DNA of 40,817 nt from Candidatus Hadarchaeales archaeon (GCA_038851755.1 JAWCKR010000013.1:1-40817); one strand, 5' to 3'; positions 2 to 28,734 are shown, numbered from the stretch's first letter. Translations and numbers: made by a program. The notes: generated by a model not told the origin, from the sequence alone.

Positions 2-205
2 CACGCCCTGGCGGCCCAGGTTTACTGCAAGAGGGTGGCGTACGAGGTGGCGGACGAGGCCCTGCAGCTCTTCGGGGGTTATGGTACCACGGACGAGTTC
101 CTGATCCAGAAGCTTTACAGGGATGCGAGGGTGAAATTGATAGAGGATGGGACCACGGAGGTCCTCAGTTTGGAGGGAGCGGGGGACCTCATCAGGAACT
201 ACTGA
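2..205 (+). CDS. Acyl-CoA dehydrogenase, C-terminal part (truncated by window edge)
   Basis: Manual translation from nt 2 gives ...VADEALQLFGGYGTTDEFLIQKLYRDARVKLIEDGTTEV..., matching the ACAD C-terminal signature QxxGGxGY...RDA...IxEGT. Stop TGA at 203-205. Confidence 0.9.
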   Translation, partial: HALAAQVYCKRVAYEVADEALQLFGGYGTTDEFLIQKLYRDARVKLIEDGTTEVLSLEGAGDLIRNY

Positions 206-794: not shown

Positions 795-2210
795 TTATGA
801 ACTACCGAAAACCTTCTTCCTCTCCAGGTACCTCCTGTACCCGTACATCCTGGAGAGGATCCTCCCCGCCTCCCTCACGTGCCCGCACACGGCCAGCCCA
901 CCCTCCTGGAACCACCTCCTCATCGCCTCCTCCGTGTCCCTGAAGTAGGAGGGAGGAACGGCCACCACCACGGGCTTGCCCAGCTCCTCCTGGATCCTCC
1001 TCCCTGCCTGGGCCAGCCTGCCCACGAAGTCCCTCAGCCACTCGGGGGGAGTCTCCCTGTAGGCCCTGAACTCCTCCGCCTGCATCTCCACCACGAGGGA
1101 GTGAACGACCTCCTGGGAGGCCACGGCCCTGAGCACCTCGTCCAGGTACCCCCTGGCGTAGGCCGGCCAGATGTCCAGGGGATTGCTCAGGCTCGTCCCC
1201 GCCCTCCTCAACTTCTCCTCCAGCTCCCCCCACCCTCCCTCCAGCCTGGGGACCCTCAGGCCCTCCTCCACCAGGGCATCCGTCTCCACCACGCTCGTAC
1301 CGCCTGAGACCGTGGTCACCGCCACCCCCCTTCCCCTGGGCAGGGGCGAACGGAGGAGGGCTGCCAACAAGTCCGCCATCTCGGTGAAGCTTCCCACCTC
1401 CATCGCACCCGTCTGCCTCAGAAAGCCCCTCCAGACCTCCCCCGCACCCGCAAGGGAACCCGTGTGGGAGGAGGCCGCCCTTCCCCCCTCCTCCGTCCTG
1501 CCGCCCTTCAGCACCACCACGGGCTTTCTCACGCACACCTCCTCCATCACCTTCCTCAGTTCCCTTCCCCTTCCCGGCCTGAGCCCCTCCAGGTACATCC
1601 CCACCGCCTTCGTCCTCTGGTCCTCACCCAGGTACCGGAGGAAGTCCACCGCGTCGAGGTCCACCCCGTTCCCGTAGCTGATCACCTTGCTGAACCTGAA
1701 GCCCCTCACCACCCCCGCGTAGATGAAGTTCACCGCCTGGCCCCCGCTCTGGGAGATGAACCCCACCTCGCCGGGCTCGGAGGGCTGGTGGTAGGCGAAG
1801 CGCAGGAAGGATTCAGGGCAGTAGATCCCCATGCAGTTGGGCCCTATGATCCTCACCTTTCCCCCAGCCGCCCTCAGCACCTCCTCCTCCAGCTCCCTCT
1901 CCCCCACCTCCCCGAACCCGGAGCTGAACACGTGGGCCGCCTTCACCCCCTTCCTCACGCACTCCCTGATGACCTCGGGGACCAGGCGGGCGGGTACGGC
2001 GATCAGCGCATAGTCCACGGGTTCCTCCACCTCCAGAAGGGAGGCGTAGCACCTCTGCCCGAAGAGTTCCTTCCTGTTGGGGTTCACCAGGAAGACCCTC
2101 CCCCCTGCCTCCAGCATGGGGAGGACGAAGTGGTCCAGGCCCACCGAGGCCCCCACCACGGCCACCGAGCGCGGGTGGAAGAGGGCGTCCAGCTCCTGGA
2201 AAGATACCAT
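795..2210 (-). CDS. Acyl-CoA synthetase (NDP-forming), alpha subunit / CoA-binding protein
   Basis: LFHPRSVAVVGAS, IIGPNCMG, ISQSGG, AASSHTGSLAG (phospho-His loop) and NPLD motifs. Confidence 0.9.
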   Translation of the reverse strand: MVSFQELDALFHPRSVAVVGASVGLDHFVLPMLEAGGRVFLVNPNRKELFGQRCYASLLEVEEPVDYALIAVPARLVPEVIRECVRKGVKAAHVFSSGFGEVGERELEEEVLRAAGGKVRIIGPNCMGIYCPESFLRFAYHQPSEPGEVGFISQSGGQAVNFIYAGVVRGFRFSKVISYGNGVDLDAVDFLRYLGEDQRTKAVGMYLEGLRPGRGRELRKVMEEVCVRKPVVVLKGGRTEEGGRAASSHTGSLAGAGEVWRGFLRQTGAMEVGSFTEMADLLAALLRSPLPRGRGVAVTTVSGGTSVVETDALVEEGLRVPRLEGGWGELEEKLRRAGTSLSNPLDIWPAYARGYLDEVLRAVASQEVVHSLVVEMQAEEFRAYRETPPEWLRDFVGRLAQAGRRIQEELGKPVVVAVPPSYFRDTEEAMRRWFQEGGLAVCGHVREAGRILSRMYGYRRYLERKKVFGSS

Positions 2211-2228
2211 CAAAGAAAGAGGAGGAAG

Positions 2229-2377: not shown

Positions 2378-2734
2378 CTATCCCACCTCGCCCGTGGCCA
2401 CCACCTCCACTCCCAGGCCCAGCAGGTTCCTCACGATCACGTCGCCCACCCTCACGGGACCCTCCACCTCGACCGCCGCCAGCTCCCTCACCGCCTCCTT
2501 CAGCTTCTCCCTCGGGATAGGCCCCGTGCTCCTCACCGGCAGGACCCCCCCTCCCCTCACCCTCAGGACGGTGAAGAGGTCCCTCAGGGGGAGCTCCACC
2601 TCCCTCTTCACGTACTCCTCCCCCGCCTTGCACTCCAGACCCTCCCACCTCACCGCCCTCCCCCCCTCCACGTACACCCTGGCCCTGCAGCCCACCGGGC
2701 ATACTATGCAGGTGAGTTCCCTCACCTCCATCAT
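2378..2734 (-). CDS. DUF1667-type CxxC small protein (partner of GlpA-like oxidoreductases)
   Basis: ELTCIVCPVGC...C...LPVRS..PIP...GDVIVRNLLGLGVEVVAT; last gene of the operon. Confidence 0.85.
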   Translation of the reverse strand: MMEVRELTCIVCPVGCRARVYVEGGRAVRWEGLECKAGEEYVKREVELPLRDLFTVLRVRGGGVLPVRSTGPIPREKLKEAVRELAAVEVEGPVRVGDVIVRNLLGLGVEVVATGEVG

Positions 2735-3990
2735 CCCACCCACCCGAGCGGGAGGCCCGACACCCTCACCGGGACCTCCTCTCCCAGGGCCCCCACCTCT
2801 TCCTTCCCCAGCGTCACCGTGACCATCTCGGGTGGCCTCACCGCCTTCCTGGAGAAGACCTTTCCCCCCACCTCCACCCTGGCCTCCTTCAGCGGCCTGC
2901 TCACCCTCAGGTAGAGGCCGACCGGTCCTTCCCCCGTTATCCTCTGCGGCACCACCAGCCTCACGTTTTCCCCTGGCCTCACCTCCCTGACCCTCCCGGG
3001 GGGAGGCAGCTTTCCCTTGAGGTACCCGGCCGCGCTCTCACCCGCCCTCTCCCCCGTGAGGGTAACATGATCCACCAGGTCGAAGACCGTCACCGCGTTC
3101 CCGCAGGCGAAGAAACCCTCGAGGGAAGTGCGCATGAACTCGTCCACCACAGGTCCCCCCGTCCTCTCGTCCAGCTCTACCCCTGCCCCTTCCGACAGCT
3201 CGTTCTCGGGGATGAGGCCCACGGAGAGGACCAAAGTGTCGCAGGGAATCCTGACCTCCGTCCCCGGGATCGGGTTTCCCTTTCCATCCACCTCCGCCAC
3301 CGTCACGGCCTCCACCCTCTCCCTGCCGTGGATGTAGGTTACCGTCCTGCGCAGGAGGAGGGGAATGCCGAAGTCCTCCAGGCACTGCACCACGTTCCTG
3401 CTCAGGCCCCCCGGGTAGGGCATGAGCTCCACCACGGCCTTCACCTCCGCCCCCTCCATGGCGAACCTCCTGGCCATGATCAGTCCCACGTCCCCGGACC
3501 CCAGAATCACTATCTCCCTCCCCGGGAGGTACCCCTCTATGTCCAGCAGCCTCTGGGCCGTGCCTGCCGTGAGGATCCCCGCGGGCCTCCCCCCGGGGAT
3601 GAGGAGGGAGCCCCTGGGCCTCTCCCTGCACCCCATGGCCAGAACCACCGCGCCCGCCCTCAGCTTCATCAGGCCGTCCCGGGGGTTCACCGCCTCCACC
3701 TCCCTCTCCCGGGTGAGCCTGAGGACCATCGTCTCCAGCTTCATCACTATTCCCTCCTGCTTGGCCCTCCGGATGAAGCGGTGGATGTACTCGGGCCCTG
3801 TGAGGTTCTCCCGGAAGTAGTGCAACCCGAAACCCGTGTGGATGCACTGGGGGAGGATACCCCCGGGGCTCTCGTTCCTGTCCAGCACCCAAACCTCCCT
3901 CACCCCCTCCTCCCTCGCCCTCAGGGCGGCAGCCAGCCCTGCCGCCCCCCCTCCCACCACCACCAGCTCCACCTCCCTCTCCACCCTCAT
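2731..3990 (-). CDS. NAD(P)/FAD-dependent oxidoreductase (pyridine nucleotide-disulfide family)
   Basis: VVVGGGAAG, GGILPQCIHTGFG, LTGPEY, AMGCRER, ILGSGDVGLIMARR and FACGN motifs. The ATG at 3990 overlaps the upstream stop. Confidence 0.9.
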   Translation of the reverse strand: MRVEREVELVVVGGGAAGLAAALRAREEGVREVWVLDRNESPGGILPQCIHTGFGLHYFRENLTGPEYIHRFIRRAKQEGIVMKLETMVLRLTREREVEAVNPRDGLMKLRAGAVVLAMGCRERPRGSLLIPGGRPAGILTAGTAQRLLDIEGYLPGREIVILGSGDVGLIMARRFAMEGAEVKAVVELMPYPGGLSRNVVQCLEDFGIPLLLRRTVTYIHGRERVEAVTVAEVDGKGNPIPGTEVRIPCDTLVLSVGLIPENELSEGAGVELDERTGGPVVDEFMRTSLEGFFACGNAVTVFDLVDHVTLTGERAGESAAGYLKGKLPPPGRVREVRPGENVRLVVPQRITGEGPVGLYLRVSRPLKEARVEVGGKVFSRKAVRPPEMVTVTLGKEEVGALGEEVPVRVSGLPLGWVG

Positions 3991-5699
3991 CCCCCCAGCA
4001 GGGGCTCCTTGATCCTGCACATCACCACCCTGCTCCTTCCCCCTTTCTTCGTGATCTCCTCCACCGGCCTCCCCAGCTCCCTCGAGAGGATCCGGAGGAG
4101 GTGCGGGGTGCAGAAGCCCCCCTGGCACCTACCCATCCCTGCCCTGGTCCTGAACTTCACCCCATCCAGGGTGGTGGCCCCCCTCCTCACCGCCTCCACC
4201 ACCTCCCCCTCCGTGACGTGCTCGCACCTGCACACCACGTGCCCGTACCTCCTGTCCCTCGCCATCAGTTCCTCCCTCTCCCTCTCCCCGAGCTCCCTGA
4301 ACCTGGGCGGTGCCCTCCTCCTGGGGTTGAAGGAAGGCTTCTCCCTGAGCTCCAGCCCCTCGCTCCTCAGGATCTCCACCACCCTCCTGGCTATGGCCGG
4401 GGCCGCCGTGATCCCTGGGGACTGAATCCCCCCCACGTTCACCAGTCCCTTCACCTTGCGCGAGGGGGCTATGTGGAAGTCCTCGGTGTAGGTGGCCGCC
4501 CTCACCCCTGCGAAGGCCGTGATCACGTCCGTCCTCCGGATGGAAGGGAGGTACCTGCTGAACTTCTCCCAGACCCTCTCCGTTCCCTCCCTGGTGGTGT
4601 CCGTGTCCTCCTTCCAGGGAATCTCCTGGGCGGTGGGACCCCAGAGCATGTTCCCGTCCACGGTGAGGGAGATCCCCCCTCCCTTCGTGTAGGGGTCCTC
4701 CTTCAGCTCCCCGGGGGCCAGGTTGTGGCGGCAGGTCCCCGCCCTCTTCCAGTCTATCAGGAGCATCTCACCCTTCCTGGGGTGGACGGTGAACTCGGGG
4801 GCCCCCGCGAGCTCCGCCACCTCGTCGGAGTAAAGGCCGGCCGCGTTCACCAGGAAGGAGGTGAGGATCTCCCCCCTGTCGGTAACCACACCCTTCACCC
4901 TCCCCCCCTCCACCCTCACCCCTATCACCTCCGTCCCTAGCAGGAGCTTCACCCCGTTGGCCACCGCGTTCTCCACCAGCGCCACCGTCACCGCGTAGGG
5001 AGCCACCACGCCGTAGGTGGGGAAGAACAGGGCACCGGCGGCCTCCGGGGGAAGGCCGGGCTCCATCCGGTGCAGTTCCTCCCTCCCCACCACCTCCACG
5101 GGACACCCGTGCTCCCTCACCCTCTCGGCCGCCACCTCCAGCAGGGGAACGAGTTCCTCCTCCATCACCACCGCCAGCAGGCCCGGCCTCTTGAAGGGGA
5201 AGTCCAGCTCCTCCGCCCAGCGGTCGTAGAGCGCATTCCCCTCCACGCACAGCCTGGCCTTCAGGGAGTTGGGGTCGGCGTCCATGCCGGCGAAGCCGTG
5301 GACCCAGGAGGCCCCTCCCTTGCTCTGCCCCCAGGCCACGTCCTCCTCCTTCTCCACCAGCACCACCTCCAGCTCGTACCTGGAGAGCTCCCTCGCTATC
5401 CCAGCCCCCACGATGCCCGCCCCCACCACCACCACGTCCGCCCTCATCCCGTCCCAGGGCGCCCTCTCCTTGACCTCCCTCTTCCTCTCCGGCCTGGGGA
5501 GCCCCCTGGGCCAGAGCCTGTTCACCACTCCCCCCACCCCGTCCACCCCCGCCGCCAGGTGCCCGAGCTCCACCACCTGCTCCCAGCTCTCCGTCTCCCC
5601 CTCCAGGAAGAGGATGCCGTCCTCCAGGCGAGCCCGCAGGGAGACCCGCGAGAAGGAGGGATCGCTCTTCACCCTCTCCTCGAGCTCCTCCAGCCTCAC
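3987..5699 (-). CDS. GlpA-like FAD-dependent oxidoreductase with N-terminal BON-like domain and C-terminal BFD-like [2Fe-2S] domain
   Basis: GTG start at 5699. N-terminal LFLEGETESWEQ...AAGVDGVGGVVNRL is BON-like. Also VVVVGAGIVG, PRKGE, IQSPGITAAPA, and C-terminal VCRCEHVTEGE...RAGMGRCQGGFC. Confidence 0.88.
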   Translation of the reverse strand: MRLEELEERVKSDPSFSRVSLRARLEDGILFLEGETESWEQVVELGHLAAGVDGVGGVVNRLWPRGLPRPERKREVKERAPWDGMRADVVVVGAGIVGAGIARELSRYELEVVLVEKEEDVAWGQSKGGASWVHGFAGMDADPNSLKARLCVEGNALYDRWAEELDFPFKRPGLLAVVMEEELVPLLEVAAERVREHGCPVEVVGREELHRMEPGLPPEAAGALFFPTYGVVAPYAVTVALVENAVANGVKLLLGTEVIGVRVEGGRVKGVVTDRGEILTSFLVNAAGLYSDEVAELAGAPEFTVHPRKGEMLLIDWKRAGTCRHNLAPGELKEDPYTKGGGISLTVDGNMLWGPTAQEIPWKEDTDTTREGTERVWEKFSRYLPSIRRTDVITAFAGVRAATYTEDFHIAPSRKVKGLVNVGGIQSPGITAAPAIARRVVEILRSEGLELREKPSFNPRRRAPPRFRELGEREREELMARDRRYGHVVCRCEHVTEGEVVEAVRRGATTLDGVKFRTRAGMGRCQGGFCTPHLLRILSRELGRPVEEITKKGGRSRVVMCRIKEPLLGG

Positions 5700-6730
5700 G
5701 CGCTCACCCTTCCGTCCAGCACCTGTGAGAGGTCGAGGATCCTCAGTCCCTCCCTCCCCAGCGCCCACTTGCAGGTGGGACATGCCGTGACGGCGAACTC
5801 CGCCCCCGTTCTCCCGAGCTCCTCCGCCCTCCTCCTGGAGATCTGCCTCGCCTCCTCCAGCGGGTTCCCTCCCCCGCAGCACACGGCGTCTTCTCTGGTC
5901 TTGGGTGGTTCCACCACCTCCAGGCCCAGCTCCCTCAGCAGCCTGCGCGGGGGGTCGAAGAGGCCCTTCTTCCTCCCCAGGGAACAGGGGTCGTGGTAGG
6001 TAACCCTCCCCGAAAGACGGGGGAGGGAGAGCCTCCCCTCCTCCACCAGTTTCAGGAAGAAGGCGGAGGCGTGGACCACCTCCACTCCCTCCAGCCCCTC
6101 CGAGAGGAACTCGAAGCACCCCGGACAGCTCAGCAGGAGGGTCTCCGCACCAGAGGAGCGAAGGGCCTCCCTCACCTCGCCCCTGAGCTCCTCCGCCCCC
6201 CGCTCGTCCCCCGCCCTGAAGGCGGGGAGGCCGCAGCAGTATCCCTCCAGCAGGACCGCCTTCAGCCCCGCCCTCTCGAGCAGGCGCAGGGTGGAGGAGG
6301 GGACCTCCCTCTCCCTCAGCTCGGCCGTGCAGCCTGGGAGGTAGGCCAGCCTCCCCTCACCCACCACCCTCCTCTTCCTCTCCTCCCCGAAGGGATTGCC
6401 GTGCTCCCTCAGGCGGGAGAGGCGGGAGCGAACTTCGGGGGGAGGGATCCCCTTCTCCACCGCCTGGACGCGTGCGGGGTGATAGAGGAGGGAGAGGTCG
6501 AAGTCGAAGGGGCAGAAGCGCCTGCAGGCCTGGCAGTCCAGACACTGGTAGGGTGGCCTGGTGTTTTCCTCCGTGCGGGGGAGCTCGCCGCGGAGCAGGA
6601 GGAGGGAGGTGCGTGCCTTCCCCTGGGGGGAGGAGGACTCGGTCCCCGCCGCCTCCTCCATAGGGCAGGCGAAGCGGCACATGTTGGGGCAGAGGGAGCA
6701 GAGCAGGAGCTTATCCCCGATCTCCTCCAT
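5696..6730 (-). CDS. Fe-S oxidoreductase, GlpC/GlcF/HdrD-like (two ferredoxin motifs plus two CCG domains)
   Basis: CSLCPNMCRFACP, CLDCQACRRFCP, YLPGC..CCG..SCPGC and YHDPC..CCG..ACPTC. Confidence 0.9.
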   Translation of the reverse strand: MEEIGDKLLLCSLCPNMCRFACPMEEAAGTESSSPQGKARTSLLLLRGELPRTEENTRPPYQCLDCQACRRFCPFDFDLSLLYHPARVQAVEKGIPPPEVRSRLSRLREHGNPFGEERKRRVVGEGRLAYLPGCTAELREREVPSSTLRLLERAGLKAVLLEGYCCGLPAFRAGDERGAEELRGEVREALRSSGAETLLLSCPGCFEFLSEGLEGVEVVHASAFFLKLVEEGRLSLPRLSGRVTYHDPCSLGRKKGLFDPPRRLLRELGLEVVEPPKTREDAVCCGGGNPLEEARQISRRRAEELGRTGAEFAVTACPTCKWALGREGLRILDLSQVLDGRVSA

Positions 6731-8141
6731 CTCCCCACCCGGCCTTCCCCGGGTTCATCAGGTTCCCCGGGTCCAGGGCCCTCTTGATCCTCCTGAGCAC
6801 GGAGAGGAACTCCCCCAGCTCCTCCTCCGTCCACCTCGCCCTCACCAGTCCCACCCCGTGGTGGTGGCTGATCGTCCCACCCAGTTCCAGCGTGGCCCTC
6901 ATGACCTTCTCCCACGCCTCCCAGTAGAAGGCCTCCGGGTCCGGGGGGAAGCCCGCGAAGGTGAGGTACAGGCAGACCCCCTCCTGGTAGAAGTGACTGA
7001 AGTGCCCGGAGACGTGCAGCATCCCCTCCAGACCCTTCAGCTTCTCCCTCACCCTTCTGTAGAGTTCCCCGGCTCTGTCCCAGAGAACGGCCACCTCTAC
7101 GGTGTCCACCACCCCTCCCCCCCTCACCACCTCCTGGGCCAGGTGCACGTCGAAGCGGGTGCGGAGCCAGTGCTTCACCGGTTCCTCCCCGGAGGGTGAA
7201 CCCCCGGCCGATCCGCACTCCTCCTCCACCACCTCCCTCTCCACCTCCACCTGCCTCCCGTCCCCCTCCAGCACGAAGAGGGAGAGCACCCTTCCACCCT
7301 CCAGCACTCCGCGGAAGTGAAGGGCCACCTCCTCCTCGTCGTAGATCCTCAGCACCGCCGGTCTGAACCCCCTCCTCAGGATCTTCCTGGCGGCCTCCAG
7401 CGCCCCCTCCACGGAGGGGAAGGTGAAGGAGAGGAGGAGGCGCCTCTCGGGGAAGGGGAAGATCCTGAGGGTGGCCTCGGTGACGATGCCCAGGGTACCC
7501 TCGCTTCCGAGCATCAGCTGCTCCAGGCGCGGGCCGGTTGCCGAGCGGGGAACGGCCCTGGAGCGAACGACCGCGCCGTCGGGCATCACCGCCTCCAGCC
7601 CGACCACCAGGTCCTCGATCTTCCCGTACTTGGTGGAGAACTGACCGGCAGCCCTGTGGGCTATCCATCCCCCCACCGTGGAGGAGGGAAGGGACTGGGG
7701 GATGTGGCCTCCCGTGTATCCCCTGCGGTTAAGCTCCTCCTCGTACCTCCATCCGTTCATCCCCGCCTGCACCCTGGCGAGCAGGTTCTTCCCGTCCACC
7801 TCCAGCAAGCGGTTCATCTTCTTCAGGTCCACCACCAGCGACCCCCCGGAGGGAAGGGCCCCGCCCACCACCCCCGTCCCCCCTCCGTAGGGCACGAGAG
7901 GGACTCCGTATTCGCGGCAGAGCCTCACGAGCCTGGAGACCTCCTCCGTGCTTTCCGGGTAGGCCACCGCCCCGGGGAGGGCGGGCTTCTTCCCCTGCAC
8001 GAACCAGACCCCCGTCAGGAACCAGGCGTCCCTCGAATGGGAGACGAGCTCCGCCTCGTCCGTTCTCAGGTCCTTATCCCCCACCACCTCCCGCGCCTCC
8101 CTGAGAAAAGCCTCCGGCAGAGGGGGGTGAGTTGGACCCAT
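6711..8141 (-). CDS. FAD-binding oxidoreductase, alkyl-dihydroxyacetonephosphate synthase-like (VAO/PCMH family)
   Basis: PYGGGTGVVGG, GHIPQSLPSSTVGGWIA..AAGQFSTKYGKIED, GSEGTLGIVTEA, HFSHFYQEGVCLYLTF, TISHHHGVG and LDPGNLMNPGK. Confidence 0.88.
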   Translation of the reverse strand: MGPTHPPLPEAFLREAREVVGDKDLRTDEAELVSHSRDAWFLTGVWFVQGKKPALPGAVAYPESTEEVSRLVRLCREYGVPLVPYGGGTGVVGGALPSGGSLVVDLKKMNRLLEVDGKNLLARVQAGMNGWRYEEELNRRGYTGGHIPQSLPSSTVGGWIAHRAAGQFSTKYGKIEDLVVGLEAVMPDGAVVRSRAVPRSATGPRLEQLMLGSEGTLGIVTEATLRIFPFPERRLLLSFTFPSVEGALEAARKILRRGFRPAVLRIYDEEEVALHFRGVLEGGRVLSLFVLEGDGRQVEVEREVVEEECGSAGGSPSGEEPVKHWLRTRFDVHLAQEVVRGGGVVDTVEVAVLWDRAGELYRRVREKLKGLEGMLHVSGHFSHFYQEGVCLYLTFAGFPPDPEAFYWEAWEKVMRATLELGGTISHHHGVGLVRARWTEEELGEFLSVLRRIKRALDPGNLMNPGKAGWGDGGDRG

Positions 8142-8200
8142 CCCTCCTCCTTCCTCCTCCCTTCACAAAAACCTAATACCCCTCCAACCCACCTTTCCCG

Positions 8201-9646
8201 GTGGGAGAGAACCTCCTCGTCTTCGACCTGGGCACCACGGCCGCCAAGGCCGTTCTCTTCAGCGAGGAGGGGAGAGTGGTGGGGAAGGGATACTGCGAGT
8301 ACCCCACCCGCGCCCCCTCCCCAGGACTGAGCGAGCAGGACCCCAGGGAATGGTGGAAGGCCCTGGTGACCTCGTGCAGGCAGGCGGTGAGGGGAGGGGA
8401 AAACCTGGCCGCGGTGGGGCTCACCACGCAGAGGGCCACGGTGGTCCCCGTCGACCGGGAGGGAGAACCCCTGCATCCCGCCATCACCTGGATGGACACC
8501 AGGACCTCTCCCTCCCTTCCCCCCCTGGCGGAGCGCTTTCCCATGAGGATGGTGGCCCACAAGCTGGTGTGGTTCAGGGACGCTCTTCCGGAGGTCTTCG
8601 AGAAAGCCCACCTCTTCCTCACCGCCGAGGCCTACCTACTGCGGAGGCTCACGGGCAACTCCGTGAGCGATCCCGTCAACTCCTCCTACAGCCTTCTGGA
8701 CACCAGGAAGCTGGAGTGGTCCCGGGAACTCTCCGAGGCCTTCGGAATCCCTCTGGAAAAGCTGCCACCGGTGAAGCCGCCCGGAACCGTGGCGGGGGAA
8801 CTCCTTCCGCGGACCGCGGACGAGCTCGGTCTTCCCCCCGGTCTCCCCGTGGTGGTGGGAGGGGGGGACCAGCAGTGCTCGGCGCTTGGGCTGGGGGTGT
8901 TTGAACCGGGGACGGTGAAGGCCACCACGGGGACGGGGACCTTCGTGGACGCGGTGGTCGGGGAGCCCCTGCTGGACTTCTACGAGCCCTCCTGCAGGAT
9001 GTTCTGCCTCCCGCACGTGGTTCGGGGGAAGTGGTGTCTGGAGGCGGTGATGCCCGGCACGGGTCTGATCTACCGGTGGTTCAGGGATGAGCTCTCGGAG
9101 AAGGAGAAGGAAGAGGGAAAGAAACTGGGCGTCGACCCCTACGAGCTGCTGAACAAGGAGGCGGAGGGGGCCGAGCCTGGGTCCAGGGGGCTCTTGGTGG
9201 TCCCCCTCTTCTCCTACTCCAGGGGTCTCTTCCTGAACCTCTCCTTCAGCCACACCAGGGCCCACCTCATCCGCGCCATCCTGGAGAGCAACGGATACAC
9301 CCTCAGGCTCTTCCTCGACCTGATGGAGTCGCTGGGTGTCTCCGTTTCCGAGCTGAGGGTGGACGGGGGAGGAGCCAGGTCCCCCCTCTGGAGGCAAATC
9401 CAGGCGGACATCACGGGGAAACCTGTGGTCCTGACCGAGACGGTGGAGGATGCCTCCTCACTGGGGGCGGCGCTCCTGGCTGGGACGAGCGCTGGGCTCT
9501 ACAGGAGCCTGGAGGAGGCCGTGGGGAGGACGGTGAGGGTGAGGGAGAGGAGGGAGCCGGAGGAGGAGAGCAGGAGGGTGTACGAGGAGCTTTACCCGAA
9601 GTACCAGGAGGCCCTCCTCAAGGTGGTCTCGGAACTAGGGCTTTAA
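8201..9646 (+). CDS. FGGY-family carbohydrate kinase (xylulokinase/glycerol kinase-like)
   Basis: FDLGTTAAKA, EQDPREWW, ITWMDTR, GGGDQQCS, TTGTG and DGGGARSPLWRQIQADITG. Confidence 0.92.
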   Translation: MGENLLVFDLGTTAAKAVLFSEEGRVVGKGYCEYPTRAPSPGLSEQDPREWWKALVTSCRQAVRGGENLAAVGLTTQRATVVPVDREGEPLHPAITWMDTRTSPSLPPLAERFPMRMVAHKLVWFRDALPEVFEKAHLFLTAEAYLLRRLTGNSVSDPVNSSYSLLDTRKLEWSRELSEAFGIPLEKLPPVKPPGTVAGELLPRTADELGLPPGLPVVVGGGDQQCSALGLGVFEPGTVKATTGTGTFVDAVVGEPLLDFYEPSCRMFCLPHVVRGKWCLEAVMPGTGLIYRWFRDELSEKEKEEGKKLGVDPYELLNKEAEGAEPGSRGLLVVPLFSYSRGLFLNLSFSHTRAHLIRAILESNGYTLRLFLDLMESLGVSVSELRVDGGGARSPLWRQIQADITGKPVVLTETVEDASSLGAALLAGTSAGLYRSLEEAVGRTVRVRERREPEEESRRVYEELYPKYQEALLKVVSELGL

Positions 9647-9894: not shown

Positions 9895-11679
9895 ATGCCT
9901 GCTACTAAAATATTGGTAATTATTGTGATTGCAGTAGCGGTGGTAGCAGGGGCAGGGGCTTTCATCGCTATGTCAAACCTTTCAGCTCCACCGACCCCCA
10001 GTCCTGAGGAGAATGAGGCGACCACACCACACAGAAATCCCAACGCGAACGTGAAAGGTTACGTCACGGACAGCGCGGGGAACCCGATAGCAGGGGTCAT
10101 CGTTCATCTGGGCGGTTTGGCAGGACTTTTGACAACCACTGACTCAACGGGGTATTACGAGTTCGAGGTGGCCAGGGAAGAGAGGGATTTTGAGATGATC
10201 TTCGAAAAGACCGGATACGACAACGTTATAACGACGATCCATGTGACCGCAACGGGAGTAGCCCGGAAAGATGTTCAGATGGTCGCTTCCGGGCGTGAGC
10301 CTGTCACGGTGAAGTTCACGCTTACCGTTCCTTACACGATGGCAGGTGATAATTTCTCCATCCAATTCGGAAGCGGGGCCCCCGTCGCCATGCAACGGGT
10401 GAACGAGGTCACCTGGTGTTATCTGAAGGGGGCTACCGCAGGGGATGTCCTGACCTACAGGTACCTGAAAAACGATGCTCCTGTGAGTTCCCCCACCTCG
10501 CTGACCGTGGTTAAAGCAAAGAGGATATATGAAACGCGAGACATGCCCGACTGGCCAAACGTTGATGAGATGAACTACCAGAAGGTCTTCGATTTCGTAC
10601 CGTATACAAACAACGGCCTTGCCCCCGATTTGGAGCTTGGCCAGGGCTTCTTCGACCTTTGGGGGATTAACTACAACAAGGTTTTGTTTGAGAACACGTC
10701 CGATGCCGCCGGACCTTCGATGGAGAGGATGAAGGAGAAGATGAACGTCTCCTGGGTACTCATCACCGATTTCGCTGAATACGCGGCTCTGGATCCTTTG
10801 CCCGAGATAAACTTCATAGACCCCGGTCTAAAGTCCGTCTACACCATCACTCAGGAAGAGATGGACAGGCTCGTACAAAAGGCACACTCCCTTGGCATGA
10901 AGGTGCTCGTGAACATCGGTACCGTGTGGGCTGAAAACGTCGATGTTTCACTTGCCAACAGGAGCAAGGTGCGCACCCGGGATTGGCTTGACGCTGCCTG
11001 GGCAGAGTGGGGCAATCTGATGGTAGAGGAGGCTGAAAAATGCCAGGCGGCGGGCGTGGATGCGTTGCAAGTCAGACCGCGCGGAGACATGTGGAACGAG
11101 GGTTATGATTACGCCTACACCTCGGAAAAAATCCGCGAGGTGGCTAACAGGGTCAGGGCAGTATACGATGGCCAGGTGACCATCGGTCTGATCGACCTCT
11201 TGGACGTCGACGAGCCGTCCTCTCTGGAAAGGTTAACCATGTGGGACGCCGCCGATTTCATCTACGTCGACATGACGGGCTTAACAATTACCGATTCAGA
11301 CGCGCCCAGCATAAGCGAAATGCAACCCGTCTTCGAGCGAGCACTCACGCAGAGGATAGCGCCAATAGCGAACGCGTACGGGAAGAAGGTCATGCTACAC
11401 GTTCAGTTCCAAAGCTATGTCGGGGCCATAAGGGAGAAGTGGGTCGAGCCGACTTATGTCTATCCTGATTTGGTGCGTGACTGGCAACAACAGGGCGACG
11501 CTTACGAGGCTTTGCTCAGGGCGCTGGAGGGCAAGAACTACATCAACTGCCTCATGTCAGTGGGCTACTGGTGGGACGACGCCATGGACCCTTTCAACGC
11601 CCGCAACTCACCCAGCATAAGCCACAGCGTCCGAGGGAAACTGGCCGAGGCAGTGCTGGGCAAGTGGTTCGCGGGATGA
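9895..11679 (+). CDS. Membrane-anchored secreted protein: carboxypeptidase-regulatory-like domain, CBM20-like domain and GH113-like TIM barrel
   Basis: N-terminal hydrophobic helix; VKGYVTDSAGNPIAGV..TTDSTGYY; AHSLGMKVLV, VRAVYDGQVT, WDAADFI and terminal RGKLAEAVLGKWF resemble GH113-like barrels. Confidence 0.7.
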   Translation: MPATKILVIIVIAVAVVAGAGAFIAMSNLSAPPTPSPEENEATTPHRNPNANVKGYVTDSAGNPIAGVIVHLGGLAGLLTTTDSTGYYEFEVAREERDFEMIFEKTGYDNVITTIHVTATGVARKDVQMVASGREPVTVKFTLTVPYTMAGDNFSIQFGSGAPVAMQRVNEVTWCYLKGATAGDVLTYRYLKNDAPVSSPTSLTVVKAKRIYETRDMPDWPNVDEMNYQKVFDFVPYTNNGLAPDLELGQGFFDLWGINYNKVLFENTSDAAGPSMERMKEKMNVSWVLITDFAEYAALDPLPEINFIDPGLKSVYTITQEEMDRLVQKAHSLGMKVLVNIGTVWAENVDVSLANRSKVRTRDWLDAAWAEWGNLMVEEAEKCQAAGVDALQVRPRGDMWNEGYDYAYTSEKIREVANRVRAVYDGQVTIGLIDLLDVDEPSSLERLTMWDAADFIYVDMTGLTITDSDAPSISEMQPVFERALTQRIAPIANAYGKKVMLHVQFQSYVGAIREKWVEPTYVYPDLVRDWQQQGDAYEALLRALEGKNYINCLMSVGYWWDDAMDPFNARNSPSISHSVRGKLAEAVLGKWFAG

Positions 11680-13454: not shown

Positions 13455-14249
13455 ATGGAGTGGGGAATGAGGAACAGGCTGGCCCAGCTCATCCAGAGGG
13501 ACGGGAGGGCCCTCTTCCTTCCCATCGACCACGGCTATTTCCAGGGCCCCACCCACAGGCTCGAGAAGCCCGGCCAGACCATCGCCCCCCTCCTCCCCTA
13601 CGCCGACGCCATCATGCTCACCAGGGGAATCCTGCGCTCCTGCGTGGACCCCACCCACACGAAACCCGTCATCCTGAGGGTCTCGGGGGGGACGAGCGTG
13701 GTGGGGGAGGATCTCTCGCACGAGGGCATCACCACCTCGGTGAGGGAGGCCATCAGGCTGAACGCCAGCGCGGTTTCCGTCTCCATCTTCGTGGGGAGCA
13801 GGTACGAGCACGAGACCCTGATGAACCTGGCCAGGCTGGTGGACGAGTGCGAGGATTACGGGATACCCGTGATGGCCGTCACGGCGGTGGGCAGGGAGCT
13901 GGAGAAGAGGGAGGCAAGGTACCTGGCCCTGTGCTGCAGGATAGCGGCCGAGCTGGGGGCCAGGGTGGTGAAGACCTACTATTGCAAGGACGGCTTCGAG
14001 AAGGTGGTGGAGGGGTGCCCCGTCCCGGTGGTGATAGCGGGGGGTCCGAAGGTGGACTCAGAGAGGGAGGTCTTCGAGTTCGTGTACGACGGGATCCAGA
14101 AGGGGGCCATAGGGGTGAACCTGGGTAGGAACATCTGGCAGCACGACCACCCCGTGGCCATGATCAAGGCCCTGAGGGCGATCATCCACGAGAACGCGAA
14201 CCCGAGGGAGGCCCAGGAGGTCTTCGAGAGTTCCAAGGTAAGGGCCTAG
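13455..14249 (+). CDS. lsrF: LsrF-type thiolase / class I DhnA-family aldolase
   Basis: MEWGMRNRL, DHGYFQGPT, LRVSGG, RIAAELGARVVKTYY, VVIAGGPK and GRNIWQ. Confidence 0.88.
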   Translation: MEWGMRNRLAQLIQRDGRALFLPIDHGYFQGPTHRLEKPGQTIAPLLPYADAIMLTRGILRSCVDPTHTKPVILRVSGGTSVVGEDLSHEGITTSVREAIRLNASAVSVSIFVGSRYEHETLMNLARLVDECEDYGIPVMAVTAVGRELEKREARYLALCCRIAAELGARVVKTYYCKDGFEKVVEGCPVPVVIAGGPKVDSEREVFEFVYDGIQKGAIGVNLGRNIWQHDHPVAMIKALRAIIHENANPREAQEVFESSKVRA

Positions 14250-14285: not shown

Positions 14286-17200
14286 GTGGCACATAGTAGG
14301 GGTATTCTAGCCGCGATAACCGCCTTTATCGTCCTCACGAGTTCCGCCCCCCTCTCCGCCGGCCTTGCTTCCTCCCCTCCTCCGGAACCAGAACCTCGTC
14401 CACGCACGGACAACGCCCAATCCGTGGAAACCTCCTCCATGCCCCTCTACGCACTGGTGGAGGCGGAACTGGAGTCCCAGCACATCAGCTTCAAAATCGA
14501 CCTTGACAACCTGGCGAAGATACTGGGGAAGAACCCGAAATCGGAGGCGAAGGGTGGGGATTTCGACTTCAGCTTGGAGTTCGCCTACGACGAGAACGAG
14601 GACGGTGGCTTCGAGATCACCATCGAAATAGGCGGTGAACGTGGAATTGGTGGCGGGGGGGAAAACGAAGAAGATGAGGGGGGTGGAGAAGGAGGAGAAG
14701 GCGAGGAAGAGGACGAAAAGGTAAGCGCGAGCATAGGCGGAACCATACAGCTGAAGCTCTTTTTTGACAACAAGGGGGAACTCGTCGGCTACAGTGTCTC
14801 AGGAAGTGTCGAACTCTCGGTGGAGGTGGAGATTTTCGAGTACAAGTACTTTGTAACCTTCACCATCGGCCCGGTACCGGTATGGATAGAAATCGACCTG
14901 AGCGGGAAGCTCGGTTTCAAGGTGAGGGCTGGAGGGACCATCTTCGGCACCCCCACCGAAAGGACGAACATCACGGTGAAGCTCTACCTGGGGGTGGAGC
15001 TGGAGGCCCTCCTGTACTCCACGGCCGGGGGGTCGGGGGAGATAAAACCCTTCATACAGGCCAAGTACTTCGTGGACGAGAGGCTCTGGCTGGTGTTCGG
15101 CGGGGCTGCCCTCTCGCTGGATGCCAAGTTCAAGATAAGACCCTGGATAACCTACACCCTCTGGTCTGCCGAGTGGGAGTTCTCCACCCCCATCTTCGCC
15201 TTTCAGAGGGATGGAGGAAAGGGGGGAGACGCCGGAGATTATCTGGCCAATGCCAGGGAGATAGATTCCAAGGGCACCTACGTCGGGTACCTGGGCAGGG
15301 ACAGCCTGTGGAGGGTAGACGAAAAAGATTTTTACAAGGTCAGACTGAAGAGCGGGGACATTGTCAGGTTGAACTTGAGCAGGGGCTCAGAACACTCAGA
15401 CGACGCGAACTTCGACCTCTATCTTTACGACAACGCTGGGAACCTGCTGGGCTCCTCTTCCTCCGACGCTGGGGAGGAAGACCTCATCGAAAGCATGGTA
15501 CCGGCAACGGGGGACTACTACATCGAGGTGAGCAAGGCCAGCGGGATGTGGAGCTGGGGCACCTACACCCTGAGAACCGACAGGGAATCGCAGAACGACA
15601 TGCGGAGCGGTGGGGATGCCGGCAACAAAATCGAGGAAGCCCTCAACCTCACGACCTCCCTGTTACCCTATCTACTCCAGGGAGAAAACGGCTACTATAC
15701 GGTCGAGTTCGTAAGTTCTGAAAACTGTTATGTGGGGGGAAGCGACCAGTACGACTTCTACAAGGTCAACGTGATGGCCGCTGGCCACATGCTCAAGGCC
15801 CGGCTGGACCCCCCGGACGGGGCCAACTTCGACCTTTACGTTTACGGACCGGACCAAACCGTCCTAGCTTCCTCCAAGAATCCCGACGACAGTCCCGATT
15901 CGGTGAACCTCAGGGTCACTTCCAGCGGATGGTACTACATAGAGGTCAGAAGGGTTAGCGGTGCAGGAAGGTACTCGCTTGAGGTCACGAGGGAACAGTG
16001 GGACATCAAGGAAGGCGACGCGTGCTCCTCCAGAAGCCAATCACGCCCGATCTCTCAGGGGAGATATCGGAACTGCTACCTGGACGAGCTCGATACCACG
16101 GACGTCTACTCGTTCCCGGTCACCCAGGACAAGCTCATCGACGTGGTGCTGACCCAGCCCCAGGACGTGGAGTACTGGGTTTACTTGCTCGACCCGTACG
16201 GCGGCCTGGTGGCTTCGAGCAGGGAGAGAATCCTCACCTGCGCCACCTACTCGGGAACCTACTACCTCCAGATGTGGAGGAAGAGCGGGAGGGGCCTCTA
16301 CGACTTCGAGCTGTGGTTGAGGGACCAGGAGGACGGGGGTACCTACACGGACGCGGGGGATTCTGAAAGCTCAGCCCTCGCGCTCCCGTACGAAACGCGC
16401 ACCCACGAGGCTGGGATTACCTTCATTCGTATGAACGCCGCTGGATGGGTGGGAGGGGGAGACCCGGAGGACTTTTACAAGATCCCGGTGGAGGCCGGTA
16501 AAACCCTATTCGTGAAGCTGGAAGGGGCGGACGACGAAACTGAGATGTACCTCCCCAACTTCACCGGGACCATCTTCTCGTACGACAAGGTGGGAAGGAA
16601 CTGGTTCTTCTGCGGGAAGGCCGAAGGCTACACCGGTTCCAGGGAGGTCTACATCCGGACCACGAACGGGGGAAGGGGATGCTTCTACTCCCTGAGCTTT
16701 TCCGTGGCCCCCGAGAACGACGGCGGAAGCGGCGGGGACGCCGGCTGGGTCCAAGGACAGGAGGTGACGCTGAAAGCCGGGGAAAACTACTGGGGCTACC
16801 TGGACGCCTGCGACACGGAGGACCTGTACAAGGTGTGGCTGGGGATGGACGACCAGCTTACTCTGAGGATGAGCGGCCATGACTCCAACTTCGATCTCTA
16901 CTTCTACGACTCAACCGCGGTGTACAGGGGAGAAAACACCGTGCCAAGCGTGAGTTCGACCAACCCCGACAGCTCGGAGAGCATAACTTACCTCGCTCAT
17001 CACGCCGGATGGTACTACTTCAGGGTGAAGAGGGAAAGCGGGCTGGGGGCTTACAAGCTGGAACTCTCCGTCCTCAGCGTGCCCTGGCCCAAGGAAATGC
17101 ACGACGTGAAAAACACGGGAAGGGGTGCCTACCCTGGTCCAGAGGAGAACACGATGAGCTGGAGGTACAAGGTGAACGAGCCCTCCACCTTCTCTTCTTG

Positions 17201-20200
17201 CCCTGATCCCTCGCCGGTCGTCTCCTCCGACGACACCGTCTATGCCGCGGCCGGGGGTTTCCTCCACACCTTCGACAGGTACGGGAACCTCAAGTGGAAG
17301 GTCCCGGTCGAGAACATCTTCTGGAGATCCTCTCCCCTGATAGGCTCCGACGGAACGATATACCTCGCGCACGACAGCAGGCTCAGCGCCTTCAACCCCA
17401 AAGACGGGTCTCTGAAATGGTCCTGTAACCTCGGGGACATCGTCCTCGGAGCTCCCACCATAGGTCCGGACGGGACCATCTTCGTCCCCTGCTCACACCT
17501 TCACGCCGTGAACCCGAACGGGACCATAAAGTGGAGCTGGGAAGGTTGGACTACCACTACTCCTGCCATCGGCTCTGACGGCACGGTCTACTTTGTTGCC
17601 TTTATCATCCGTGGGAAAGACATACAGTACAGCCTCTACGCGCTGTACCCTGAAAATGGCGGGGAAAAATGGAAATACGGGACGGCGGGGGTGGCCGTTC
17701 CTCCGGTAATGGGTCCAGACGACACGGTGTACCTGGGGCACGAAAACGCCTTGGTGGCAATAAATCCCAACGGTACTCTGAAGTGGTCCCGCACTTTTGA
17801 AAACCTCTTCCTCGGCATACCTGCCATCGATAACGACGGTACGATATATCTGCCTGGGGTAAGCTTCCGGATCAGTGGGGGCTATGTGTTTGAAAACGCT
17901 GTGCTGATGGCACTCAATCCCTCCAACGGGTCTACGAGATGGGTCTTCTCCATCAGGTCACCTTACTACCCAATGCCAGCGGGAGTTTCATCGCCCGCCA
18001 TCGGCTCCGGAGACACCGTCTACTTTGGCCTCAACAGGATCATCTTCGCGGTGAACAAGAACGGGGGCCTCAAGTGGACATTCGACGCTGGAGGGCTGGT
18101 GAACTCCCCGGCAATAGGCAGGAACAGGGCCATCTACTTCATCTCCTCCGACGGATACCTGTACGCGATAGAGGACGACACGACGCCTCCGTTCTCGAGC
18201 GTGGCCCATCCCGCCGACGGTGCCGTCCTCAACGGGATAAACGAAATCATCGTTCAGGCCAGCGACTACTTCTCCGGGGTGCAGAGCGTGGAGGTGGTGA
18301 TAAAGCGGGAGAGGGATGGTGCCTTCCTGCTGCCGGGTGGGTGGGAAAATGTGGGGGAGGAGGACGCCTGGCGCATGGCCCAGTTCTCTGACAGCGACAA
18401 CTGCTGGAGGCTCAGCGTCCCCTCGGAAGCCTTCAGCTCGGGATGGTACGTGGTCAACACCAGGGCGACCGACGCCGCAGGCAACAGGGAGAGACCTTCC
18501 AGCGTGGCCACTTACTACAACCGTGGAGGTGTCTCCTTCTTCGTAGACAGCATCCCTCCAGCCGGTTACATCAGGATAAACAACGGCGAAGGAAGCACGA
18601 GATGTACCGACGTGGTCCTTTACCTGTGGTATAGTGACTACGCCAACTGCACTGAAGAATCGGGGTACTGCAGCTCCGGAGTGGTCTCAGCCAGGTACAG
18701 CAACGATGGTGTTAGCTGGACTGAGTGGGAGCCCGTCTCCACGTCCAGGTCCTGGACCCTCGACCCAAAGACGTGCACCGTCTACTACCAGGTCATAGAC
18801 CTGGCCGGCAACGTGAGCGAAGTGGCCTCGGATACCATAACCCTGGAGAACGAGGTACCTCCTCCCGAACCGGAGAGCCCGTCCTCCGAAGGAGAGGTGT
18901 TCGACTGGATCCCCGAGTTCAAGTGGTCCTCCCGGGACCTGCTGCCTGGAGAGGCCTACCTGCTGGAGATAGAGAGGGAGGACGGGAGTTCCAGGGTCAC
19001 CCTGATCACCAGGTCCAGGACCGTCTGCTACACCCTCCCTGGGATTTCCGCTCGGATAGTATCCGGGCTGCAGAAGGGTGAATCACTGGGGTACAGGTGG
19101 AGGGTTTCCATCCTCGCTCCCTTCGTCGACGCGCAGAAGAGCAGCAAGTGGAGGTACTTCCGGCTCTCCAGGGATAACCGGGAGAACTCCACCATGGAGC
19201 TCTTCGCCGGGGCTTTGGAGAACAAGCTGAGGCTGGGGACCGTCCTCAAGAACAAGAGGGATCTCCTCACGGGGGGACTGGGCGGGGTGGTGTCCCTGCC
19301 CATGAAGCTGCAGATCAAAGCGGGAGAAACGGGGGAGATCAGGACCATCTCCAAGATGATGGTCAAAACGGGCATGGTCGTGCCAGGGGAGACCGTGTCC
19401 ACCTTCACGGACCTGTCCCCGCCCCAGAGCGGGGACTACCAGATTTCCTGCGAGCTTGGAGGGGGCAGCATTTCCAAGGCTCCACAGAGAGTGGAAAACA
19501 AACAGGTGAAAACCCAGCCGGACCTCATCGCCTCTGCCTCCGACACGGCATACGACGAGAAGCTGGCCCTGATCACCACGAGGGTGTATAACAGGGGGAC
19601 CGCCGCCGCAGGTAGCTTCAGCGTGGCCTTCTACCTGGAGGAGGAGGGCCCGACCACCGTGCTGTTGGAGGGGCTGGCCGCAGGTGACGCCGCGACCGTT
19701 TCCATGTCCGCGAAGCTCCCACGCGGCACCGTTTCCGTGCGCATCGTCGTAGACCCTGAAGGCAAGGTGGAAGAATCCGACGAGGGAAACAACGAGGCCA
19801 CGGCCCTGGTAACCTCCCTCAGGGGTGCGCCTCCCGTGGCGAACTTCACCTACTCGCCCAGTTCACCCAGCGTGAACGCGTCCGTGAACTTCACCGATAC
19901 CTCCGCTGACAACGACGGAAAGATAGTGGCCTGGTCGTGGGACTTCGGCGACAAGACCACCTCCACGCTCCAGAACCCGACGCACACCTACTCCAGCACG
20001 GGAACCTACACCGTGACTTTGACCGTGACCGATGATGCGGGCAACACCGCTTCCTGCAGCAAACAGGTCGTGGTTACCCAACCCAACAAACCCCCGACCG
20101 CTTCCTTCTCCTACGAAGAGATCGATTATCTGACGGTCAGGTTCACCGACCAATCGAGCGACCCGGATGGAAGCATAGTGGCCTGGTCCTGGAGCTTCGG

Positions 20201-28733: not shown

Positions 28734-28734
28734 C

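Follow-up and report, generated by a model that had tools for sequence, protein, structure and literature searches.

An operon joining an alkyl-DHAP-synthase-like flavoprotein, an iron-sulfur protein and an FngABC paralogue in a Hadarchaeales archaeon

We analysed a stretch of DNA of 40,817 nucleotides, hereafter the window, from a hot-spring archaeon, Candidatus Hadarchaeales archaeon (GCA_038851755.1 JAWCKR010000013.1:1-40817). Its subject of interest is an operon that begins with the gene for a flavoprotein resembling alkyl-dihydroxyacetonephosphate (alkyl-DHAP) synthase, which we call ADASL. Four further genes follow on the same strand, and a gene for a kinase of the FGGY family faces them. 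The genome to which the window belongs comprises 1.25 Mb and is 93% complete, and both the closest proteins and the closest locus carry the label Hadarchaeales or Hadarchaeota. The features of the locus, with domains as assigned by Pfam, are as follows:

6711-8141, minus strand: ADASL, 476 aa; FAD_binding_4 (PF01565) and FAD-oxidase_C (PF02913)
5696-6730, minus strand: CCG iron-sulfur protein, 344 aa; Fer4_8 and two CCG domains
3987-5699, minus strand: BON-FngA, 570 aa from the GTG at 5699; BON-like, DAO and Fer2_BFD domains
2731-3990, minus strand: FngB-like FAD/NAD(P) oxidoreductase, 419 aa from the ATG at 3990; Pyr_redox_2, 3e-31
2378-2734, minus strand: FngC-like cysteine-rich subunit, 118 aa from the ATG at 2734, or 121 aa from the GTG at 2743; DUF1667, 2.5e-22
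8142-8200, no strand: divergent intergenic region of 59 bp between the ADASL and kinase genes
8201-9646, plus strand: FGGY kinase, 481 aa; FGGY_N and FGGY_C

Read in the sequence, the ADASL and CCG genes overlap by 20 nt, the CCG and FngA genes by 4 nt (GTGA), the FngA and FngB genes by 4 nt (ATGA) and the FngB and FngC genes by 4 nt (ATGA), or by 13 nt with the FngC start at GTG 2743. The five minus-strand genes are translationally coupled, and the kinase gene diverges from them 59 bp away; this gap presumably holds the promoters of both the ADASL and the kinase gene. An earlier interpretation made without database searches, the sequence-only reading, had described five overlapping genes sharing a 59-bp gap with an FGGY kinase, and the domain scans and junction reads bear this out. 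The 570-aa form of FngA agrees with an existing gene call (P0144).

ADASL and its relation to alkyl-DHAP synthase

ADASL consists of VAO-type FAD-binding and cap domains, and its closest solved relative is alkyl-DHAP synthase (AGPS). Its placement relative to AGPS and to 2-hydroxyacid dehydrogenases was assessed from the scores of HMMER searches against the PDB and of Foldseek. As a single sequence, ADASL matched AGPS with 219-220 bits, compared with 161 bits for mouse D-lactate dehydrogenase (D-LDH) and 149 bits for glycolate oxidase (9qgz); the E-values were 3.4e-64 for AGPS 2uuu and 4.5e-46 for D-LDH 8jdb. The family profile gave 319/299 bits for AGPS and 209 bits for D-LDH. Among E. coli proteins, YgcU is 33% identical to ADASL (243 bits) and GlcD 26% (110 bits). 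The AF2 model of ADASL (pLDDT 82) was matched by Foldseek to mammalian AGPS with a TMq of 0.86-0.87 (top match 5ae3, 0.87) and to D-LDH with 0.81. The PDB search, the E. coli comparison and the fold search thus agree with the sequence-only reading in placing the flavoprotein on the AGPS/YgcU branch and not among the 2-hydroxyacid dehydrogenases.

Two motifs characterize the protein, H380-x-S382-H383-x-Y385...G388-V-C-L-Y392 and S425-H426-H427-H428-G-V-G431. Both align with Dictyostelium and guinea-pig AGPS in the PDB search, and the alignment takes in the positions altered in the AGPS mutant entries R419H (4bc7) and Y578F (4bca). R265, Y392 and H426-H428 of ADASL correspond to Arg419, Tyr578 and the HHH loop, His615-617, of AGPS (guinea-pig numbering), and neither these residues nor the motifs vary among the 18 archaeal and bacterial sequences of a family alignment. 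The SHHHGVG and HxSHxY..GVCLY signatures that had originally been singled out are therefore present and align with the catalytic Tyr and the HHH loop of AGPS. The HxGDGNxH and (S/A)xEHG motifs of GlcD and D-LDH are not found in ADASL, which has HFSHFY and SHHHG instead. A separate GlcD-type enzyme in the same genome does possess such motifs (GHVGDGNVH and AEHG) and adjoins its own CCG and Lut-like genes; given this paralogue, ADASL is not the cell's lactate/glycolate enzyme.

The cluster of that paralogue (L095, G000:C3:71000-86000, about 3604-8160, minus strand) comprises the GlcD-type flavoprotein gene together with GlcF-like, LutA-like and LutB-like genes and adjoins genes for 2-oxoacid:ferredoxin oxidoreductase. 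By its gene content, it is a probable lactate/glycolate dehydrogenase.

ADASL is shorter than AGPS (476 aa versus 584-658 aa). The N-terminal helical domain of AGPS has no counterpart in ADASL, the alignments beginning at residue 90-92 of the Dictyostelium and 163-199 of the guinea-pig enzyme, and a 29-37-residue segment of the AGPS cap is likewise without a counterpart in the PDB alignments. We take both of these elements to help form the alkyl tunnel of AGPS. A 602-aa open reading frame (ORF) at another locus, L061, was considered as a long-form stand-in and rejected because its N-terminal extension and the N-terminal domain of AGPS do not align.

The iron-sulfur partner and the FngABC paralogue

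The CCG protein has a GlcF/GlpC-like architecture, in which an N-terminal two-cluster ferredoxin-like domain (C11/C14/C18/C22 and C66/C69/C73) is followed by two CCG domains; its cysteines are invariant in a 19-sequence alignment. To describe the neighbourhoods of ADASL, we surveyed 80 loci that encode an ADASL relative, drawn from contigs of one genome per species. The CCG gene follows ADASL in 69 of the 80 loci and adjoins it in 61 of the 68 that have at least 1.3 kb of downstream sequence, the other seven being six Actinomycetota loci and L060. A natural ADASL-CCG fusion that retains the HHHG motif was recognized in one of four long matches inspected (P0121, 888 aa). A model of the ADASL-CCG complex reached an ipSAE of 0.92, compared with 0.00 for the best of three controls; this mark is attained by 116 of 157 solved complexes and by 2 of 215 mismatched pairs. 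At least 98% of contacts are shared between the model runs, the partner pLDDT is 92, and residues 6-75 of the CCG protein, its cluster-binding N-terminal domain, touch the FAD domain of ADASL.

Adjacency, natural fusion and the complex model show computationally that the CCG protein is ADASL's own partner. A near-constant electron-transfer partner speaks for a net redox reaction, whereas AGPS carries out none. ADASL is probably an iron-sulfur-linked redox enzyme and not a lipid-building one.

The CCG genes of four loci (L067, L069, L077 and L079, from Thermoplasmatota, Thermococci and Njordarchaeum) encode an N-terminal extension of about 40 aa that starts with MPGKWDWL or MAGKWEWL. This extension, which is not present in the CCG protein of the window, may be a membrane or docking element.

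The three remaining genes of the operon encode DAO+BFD, Pyr_redox_2 and DUF1667 proteins together, which is the subunit pattern of FngABC, and therefore represent one known kind of enzyme. In the accessible text of PMC13689815, FngABC is described as a ferredoxin-dependent NAD+ glycerol-3-phosphate (G3P) oxidoreductase purified from Pyrococcus furiosus and proposed, in 2026, as a new electron-bifurcating family. The FngA of the window matches DAO with 2.6e-71 and Fer2_BFD with 3e-15 in Pfam, and its best PDB match is the Mycoplasma glycerophosphate oxidase GlpO (4x9m, 5.3e-36). The genes that had been called GlpA-like, FAD oxidoreductase and CxxC protein are thus all there, and the middle enzyme is an FngABC paralogue, not GlpA alone.

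A distinctive property of this paralogue is the BON domain at the N-terminus of FngA. BON scored 27.2 bits in a 110-aa N-terminal piece of the window's FngA, and Pfam found it in all nine N-termini of ADASL-linked FngA proteins tested. We surveyed 66 genomes from 20 genera of the phylum and found ADASL orthologues in seven genomes belonging to two genera. Seven FngA matches span the BON region; all are in the seven ADASL genomes, six of them on the same contig at a distance of no more than 3.5 kb. Five full-length FngA matches do not include the BON region, and none of these adjoins ADASL. In this survey, BON on FngA is exclusively linked to the presence of ADASL-CCG.

The BON domain also occurs in natural fusions. 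Single CCG-BON-FngA polypeptides are encoded at L009:5095-7908 (937 aa) and L053:4274-7096 (940 aa), in metagenome-assembled genomes labelled Methylocystaceae and Acidobacteriota, and share 55% identity; P0156 combines CCG with BON and stops within the BON domain. When the L009 fusion was used for a representative search, most long matches were FngA-FngB, FngA-FngC or FngA-B-C fusions, and CCG+BON was seen only in P0155 and P0156; a search with the BON region of FngA gave 10 matches, too few for counting fusions. The CCG-BON-FngA fusions suggest that the five proteins probably form one flavin/iron-sulfur assembly, in which BON would dock FngA on the CCG subunit.

Other fusions of FngA are with two Aldolase_II domains (P0174, 1019 aa), with FngB (P0168, 928 aa), with FngC (P0194, 719 aa) and with both FngB and FngC (P0213, 1166 aa).

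In the 36 surveyed loci with full flanks, the CCG gene is present in 33, the kinase gene in 29 and FngABC in 11. Three of the 36, all from Actinomycetota, were scored as kinase-only in a first count, which used tblastn at 1e-8 and missed GlpD-type genes that were later found by clustering and Pfam. By clustering, six loci of Actinomycetota and one of Bacillota have a GlpD-type ORF in place of FngABC, and Pfam confirmed it in L073, one of the Actinomycetota loci, and in L004. The kinase gene is followed by one for an alpha/beta hydrolase in 17 Asgard loci, and FngC by one for a DAGK_cat/YegS lipid kinase in five loci. The sequence-only reading had proposed such a survey as a check, and its outcome is that CCG and kinase genes recur beside ADASL and that BON-FngA co-varies with ADASL within the phylum. 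In 20 Asgard loci (L031:7269-8747 and 19 others), ADASL has immediately upstream of it a conserved ORF of about 492 aa, which matches no Pfam family (best E-value 0.0055).

On the side of FngC, the operon of the window is flanked by two genes of acyl-CoA metabolism:

2-199, plus strand: C-terminus of an acyl-CoA dehydrogenase; Acyl-CoA_dh_1, 6.5e-14
795-2213, minus strand: alpha subunit of an ADP-forming acyl/acetyl-CoA synthetase, by profile match

Both had been noticed before and read as fitting lipid catabolism. The genes themselves are present. However, the CoA-ligase gene recurs in only one of the 80 related loci, that of the closest relative, and so the flanks give no argument for lipid catabolism.

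On the other side, a DeoC/LacD-family protein is encoded about 4 kb from the operon (13455-14249, plus strand); it scores 382 bits on NF006081 (cut-off 297), the model of 3-hydroxy-5-phosphonooxypentane-2,4-dione thiolase of the LsrF type. Two proteins have a surface or secreted look, one of 594 aa with CarboxypepD_reg and a weak GH113 match (9895-11679, plus strand) and one of 2017 aa with PPC, PQQ-like beta-propeller, CARDB and PKD domains (14286-20339, plus strand). Farther away are a myo-inositol-1-phosphate synthase gene adjoining a PfkB-family kinase gene (27843-29802, minus strand) and a gene for a xylose-isomerase-like TIM barrel (31021-31854, plus strand). An Fe-ADH gene at 23768-24808 was considered as a glycerol-1-phosphate dehydrogenase and set aside, its nearest NCBIfam models being alcohol/lactaldehyde reductases, below cut-off.

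The divergent kinase and a possible pathway for a modified glycerol

The best NCBIfam model of the window kinase is XylB, with 269 bits (cut-off 380), and the GlpK model TIGR01311 scores 200 bits (cut-off 590). In a tree of FGGY kinases, the window kinase belongs to a clade of Hadarchaeota and Asgard sequences (SH-aLRT 96) that is sister to the GlpK clade with a support of 91, rather than to XylB or any other pentulose kinase from E. coli. The kinases linked to ADASL fall into three FGGY clades, namely the window and Asgard clade, the GlpK clade (SH-aLRT 100) and the YgcE clade (SH-aLRT 99). The AI-2 kinase LsrK is among the top solved and NCBIfam matches of the operon's kinase, a putative link to the LsrF-type protein encoded about 4 kb away.

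We compared six positions that we take to hold glycerol in E. coli GlpK, Glu84 and Tyr135 among them. They read REWYDF in the canonical GlpKs of Hadarchaeota, RAWRDF in the window kinase and RSWTDF in the ADASL-linked kinase of another genome of the phylum, G054. The window kinase thus keeps the catalytic Asp and the Arg, Trp and Phe of the glycerol site, and two of the six pocket residues, Glu84 and Tyr135, are gone; Glu84 is kept in three of 42 ADASL-linked kinases. By these sequence criteria, the window kinase is not a canonical glycerol kinase.

G054 provides a direct contrast with canonical glycerol catabolism. One of its contigs carries a GlpK 50% identical to that of E. coli beside a BON-less FngABC, and another carries BON-FngABC-ADASL-CCG with a kinase 31% identical to GlpK; a canonical GlpK and FngABC cluster is present in G051 too. 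Since the BON-less FngABC and GlpK coexist with the BON paralogue in G054, the substrate of BON-FngABC may differ. In the 93%-complete genome of the window, we found no canonical GlpK (best score 196 bits, cut-off 590), no MIP channel, no GDPD and no match to the PF01553 acyltransferase family, and on the fatty-acyl-reductase side there was a weak generic NAD_binding_4 match of 27.5 bits.

The reading we favour, in which our belief and our doubt are about equal, is that a modified glycerol, whatever its substituent, is processed and probably broken down by a self-contained pathway encoded at the locus, which would run parallel to the canonical one and would not serve lipid synthesis. The FGGY kinase would phosphorylate a derivative that departs from glycerol at its far end. 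BON-FngABC, judged from its family, would then oxidise the glycerol-phosphate derivative at C2 to a DHAP-type ketone. ADASL would take up the DHAP-type compound, carry out AGPS-like chemistry at the carbon adjoining its ketone group and, unlike AGPS, would pass or receive electrons via its own GlcF/GlpC-like CCG subunit. The order kinase, BON-FngABC, ADASL-CCG is plausible. It was already part of the sequence-only reading, from which the dedicated module distinct from glycerol catabolism survives; the second enzyme, then regarded as G3P-dehydrogenase-like, has been redefined as an FngABC paralogue, and the CCG partner had not been foreseen.

Several observations weigh against this pathway. A G3P-dehydrogenase-type gene does not occur beside ADASL in 22 of the 36 full-flank loci (17 with CCG and kinase only, 5 with CCG only); step two therefore need not be encoded in cis, and ADASL-CCG can occur on its own. 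That the CCG subunit reaches FngA would fit a role of ADASL-CCG as a parallel dehydrogenase equally well as a later step. The complex model may have passed through its likeness to solved flavoprotein/iron-sulfur complexes. In the full-length FngA of the window, BON scores 22.4 bits, under the Pfam cut-off of 27, and the phylum counts come from related genomes that are not independent of each other. As to the kinase, the tree was built by a quick method without bootstrap and contains several long branches, the alignment is gapped near Tyr135, and the roles of the pocket positions are carried over from the structure of the E. coli enzyme.

That the substituent is a long alkyl chain makes up a small part of our belief in the modified-glycerol pathway and is, taken alone, unlikely. 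The kinase would convert 1-O-alkylglycerol to alkyl-G3P and BON-FngABC would convert the latter to alkyl-DHAP, whose ether ADASL would split without O2 by backwards or oxidative AGPS chemistry. The conservation of the AGPS catalytic residues is in line with such a route, as is the way its three-enzyme logic matches a dedicated module of kinase, dehydrogenase and ADASL. The lost pocket residues of the kinase could make space for a substituent, lipid-type neighbours occur elsewhere (the Asgard alpha/beta hydrolases and the DAGK_cat/YegS kinases), and the Pseudomonas aeruginosa operon PA3026-PA3023, discussed below, is co-regulated with phospholipase C in the accessible text of PMC8151288. However, the N-terminal domain and cap insertion of AGPS are the very parts without a counterpart in ADASL, and a non-redox ether exchange needs no near-constant CCG or electron-transfer flavoprotein (ETF) partner. 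FGGY kinases are soluble sugar and polyol kinases, none of which was seen here to accept a lipid, no lipase, lipid kinase or SCP2 gene lies near the operon in the window, and the rarity of the flanking CoA-ligase gene also speaks against lipid degradation. In a bolder version, which we regard as distinctly speculative, the five proteins would be one machine that cleaves glycerol ethers without oxygen. The kinase and BON-FngABC would turn an alkylglycerol into alkyl-DHAP and hand it to the AGPS-like subunit, which would cleave the ether at the ketone's neighbouring carbon; electrons would flow via the CCG subunit into the bifurcating FngABC core, and the machine would be the ancestor of eukaryotic AGPS, which arose by loss of the redox partner.

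The remaining alternatives depart from a modified glycerol. ADASL-CCG could oxidise unsubstituted glycerol phosphate, for example the sn-1 enantiomer, which is not taken by GlpA/GlpD-type enzymes, or sn-G3P with another electron outlet, sharing its iron-sulfur wiring with FngABC. In the 17 full-flank loci where ADASL-CCG and a kinase occur without a G3P-dehydrogenase-type gene, such an activity would supply the last step needed to get from glycerol to DHAP; the CCG subunit is built like GlpC, which in E. coli is the third subunit of GlpABC, and the AGPS active site binds the DHAP moiety, the product of glycerol-phosphate oxidation, next to the flavin. We nonetheless consider this improbable, since it explains neither the loss of Glu84 and Tyr135 in ADASL-linked kinases, both kept in the canonical GlpKs of the phylum, nor the extra FngABC paralogue in a genome that already has one (G054). 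Our literature search found no paper tying sn-glycerol-1-phosphate to an FAD-linked oxidase, a result that we counted in favour of this alternative. A pathway for a C4-C5 polyol or ketose, in which the kinase and the FngABC paralogue would act on a sugar alcohol phosphate and ADASL-CCG would oxidise the product further, is quite improbable. It would accord with XylB as the best, if below cut-off, NCBIfam model of the kinase, with the Aldolase_II-FngA fusion P0174, with the LsrF-type aldolase/thiolase gene 4 kb off and with the many FngABC homologues that, in the accessible text of PMC13689815, sit with sugar kinases and polyol genes and without glycerol genes. Yet the window kinase clade is sister to GlpK and not to XylB (support 91, quick method), no polyol isomerase, epimerase or transporter gene was found within the operon, and the characterised protein most closely related to the flavoprotein binds DHAP as a C3 moiety. 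Very improbable, finally, are an ordinary D-lactate/glycolate-type dehydrogenase that happens to lie beside a glycerol operon and a true biosynthetic alkyl-DHAP synthase. The former would share its fold and type of CCG partner with GlcDF-type enzymes, but ADASL has AGPS-type motifs in place of those of GlcD and D-LDH, the genome already has a GlcD-type enzyme, and ADASL co-varies with BON-FngA. The latter would agree with the JGI label 'alkyldihydroxyacetonephosphate synthase' carried by many family members; however, the genome has no PF01553 match and only the weak generic NAD_binding_4 match, and ADASL has no N-terminal domain and does have a redox partner. A biosynthetic AGPS role has no support.

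Comparison with known systems

Annotations give the short AGPS homologues of prokaryotes as alkyl-DHAP synthase, and these serve as markers of ether-lipid synthesis. As far as the accessible texts go, an AGPS homologue served as an ether-lipid marker in a blastp screen (PMC11868695), a reconstruction of the gene content of LUCA lists alkyl-DHAP synthase (PMC11383801), and a 2025 preprint on plasmalogen origins kept only AGPS of 500-700 aa and reported no evidence of a plasmalogen pathway in Archaea. If the short homologues are iron-sulfur-linked redox enzymes that serve a pathway for a glycerol derivative, such inferences need review. In our literature search, we came across no paper in which short AGPS-like or YgcU proteins are given a function. 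To the FngABC family, the operon adds a form that has a BON adaptor and two further subunits. Subsurface archaea and bacteria widely carry the module, whose substrate may be an abundant glycerol derivative, ether-lipid debris being one candidate. The module also offers a testable path to the evolutionary origin of AGPS and, should the ether-cleaving machine be true, would supply a missing anaerobic route of ether-lipid degradation in sediments and hot springs.

ADASL resembles AGPS/ADPS (EC 2.5.1.26; 2uuu, 4bby) in its two-domain VAO-type FAD fold, its catalytic residues and as its best match in both sequence and fold, with about 29-31% identity in a structure-based alignment. It differs in the missing N-terminal domain and cap segment, in its near-constant CCG iron-sulfur partner, and in sitting with a kinase and a G3P-dehydrogenase-type enzyme and not with FAR or GNPAT, the partners of AGPS. 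E. coli YgcU is a short form like ADASL, 33% identical to it, and keeps the HHHG and H-x-S-H-x-Y motifs. Its gene lies in the ygc cluster near the ETF-like ygcQR and FixCX-like ygcNO genes and the FGGY kinase gene ygcE, which in our tree groups with ADASL-linked kinases of Chloroflexota and Caldisericota. The E. coli cluster thus has ETF-type partners where the window has CCG.

The accessible text of PMC8151288 describes the operon PA3026-PA3023 of P. aeruginosa, part of the GliR regulon, as encoding an FAD oxidoreductase, a GlpD-type enzyme, an FGGY kinase and a YegS lipid kinase; it is induced along with phospholipase C, and a deletion mutant still grows on glycerol. This operon has GlpD where the window has FngABC, the likeness being one of gene descriptions. 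The P. furiosus FngABC (PMC13689815, accessible text) is like the complex of the window in its DAO+BFD, Pyr_redox_2 and DUF1667 subunits and in the kinase gene alongside. The accessible text of that paper does not mention FAD-linked oxidase neighbours. The FngA of the window has an extra N-terminal BON domain compared with that of P. furiosus, and its gene is coupled with ADASL-CCG; moreover, the window has no canonical GlpK as its kinase, and its genome yielded no glycerophosphodiesterase.

GlcDEF, D-LDH of the GlcD-GlcF type and E. coli GlpC have in common with the window the pairing of a flavoprotein with a CCG-type subunit that contains two [4Fe-4S] sites and two CCG domains. GlcD-type systems differ, however, in that the metal and substrate motifs of ADASL are of the AGPS type, and a CCG subunit of the window type is elsewhere also fused to FngA.

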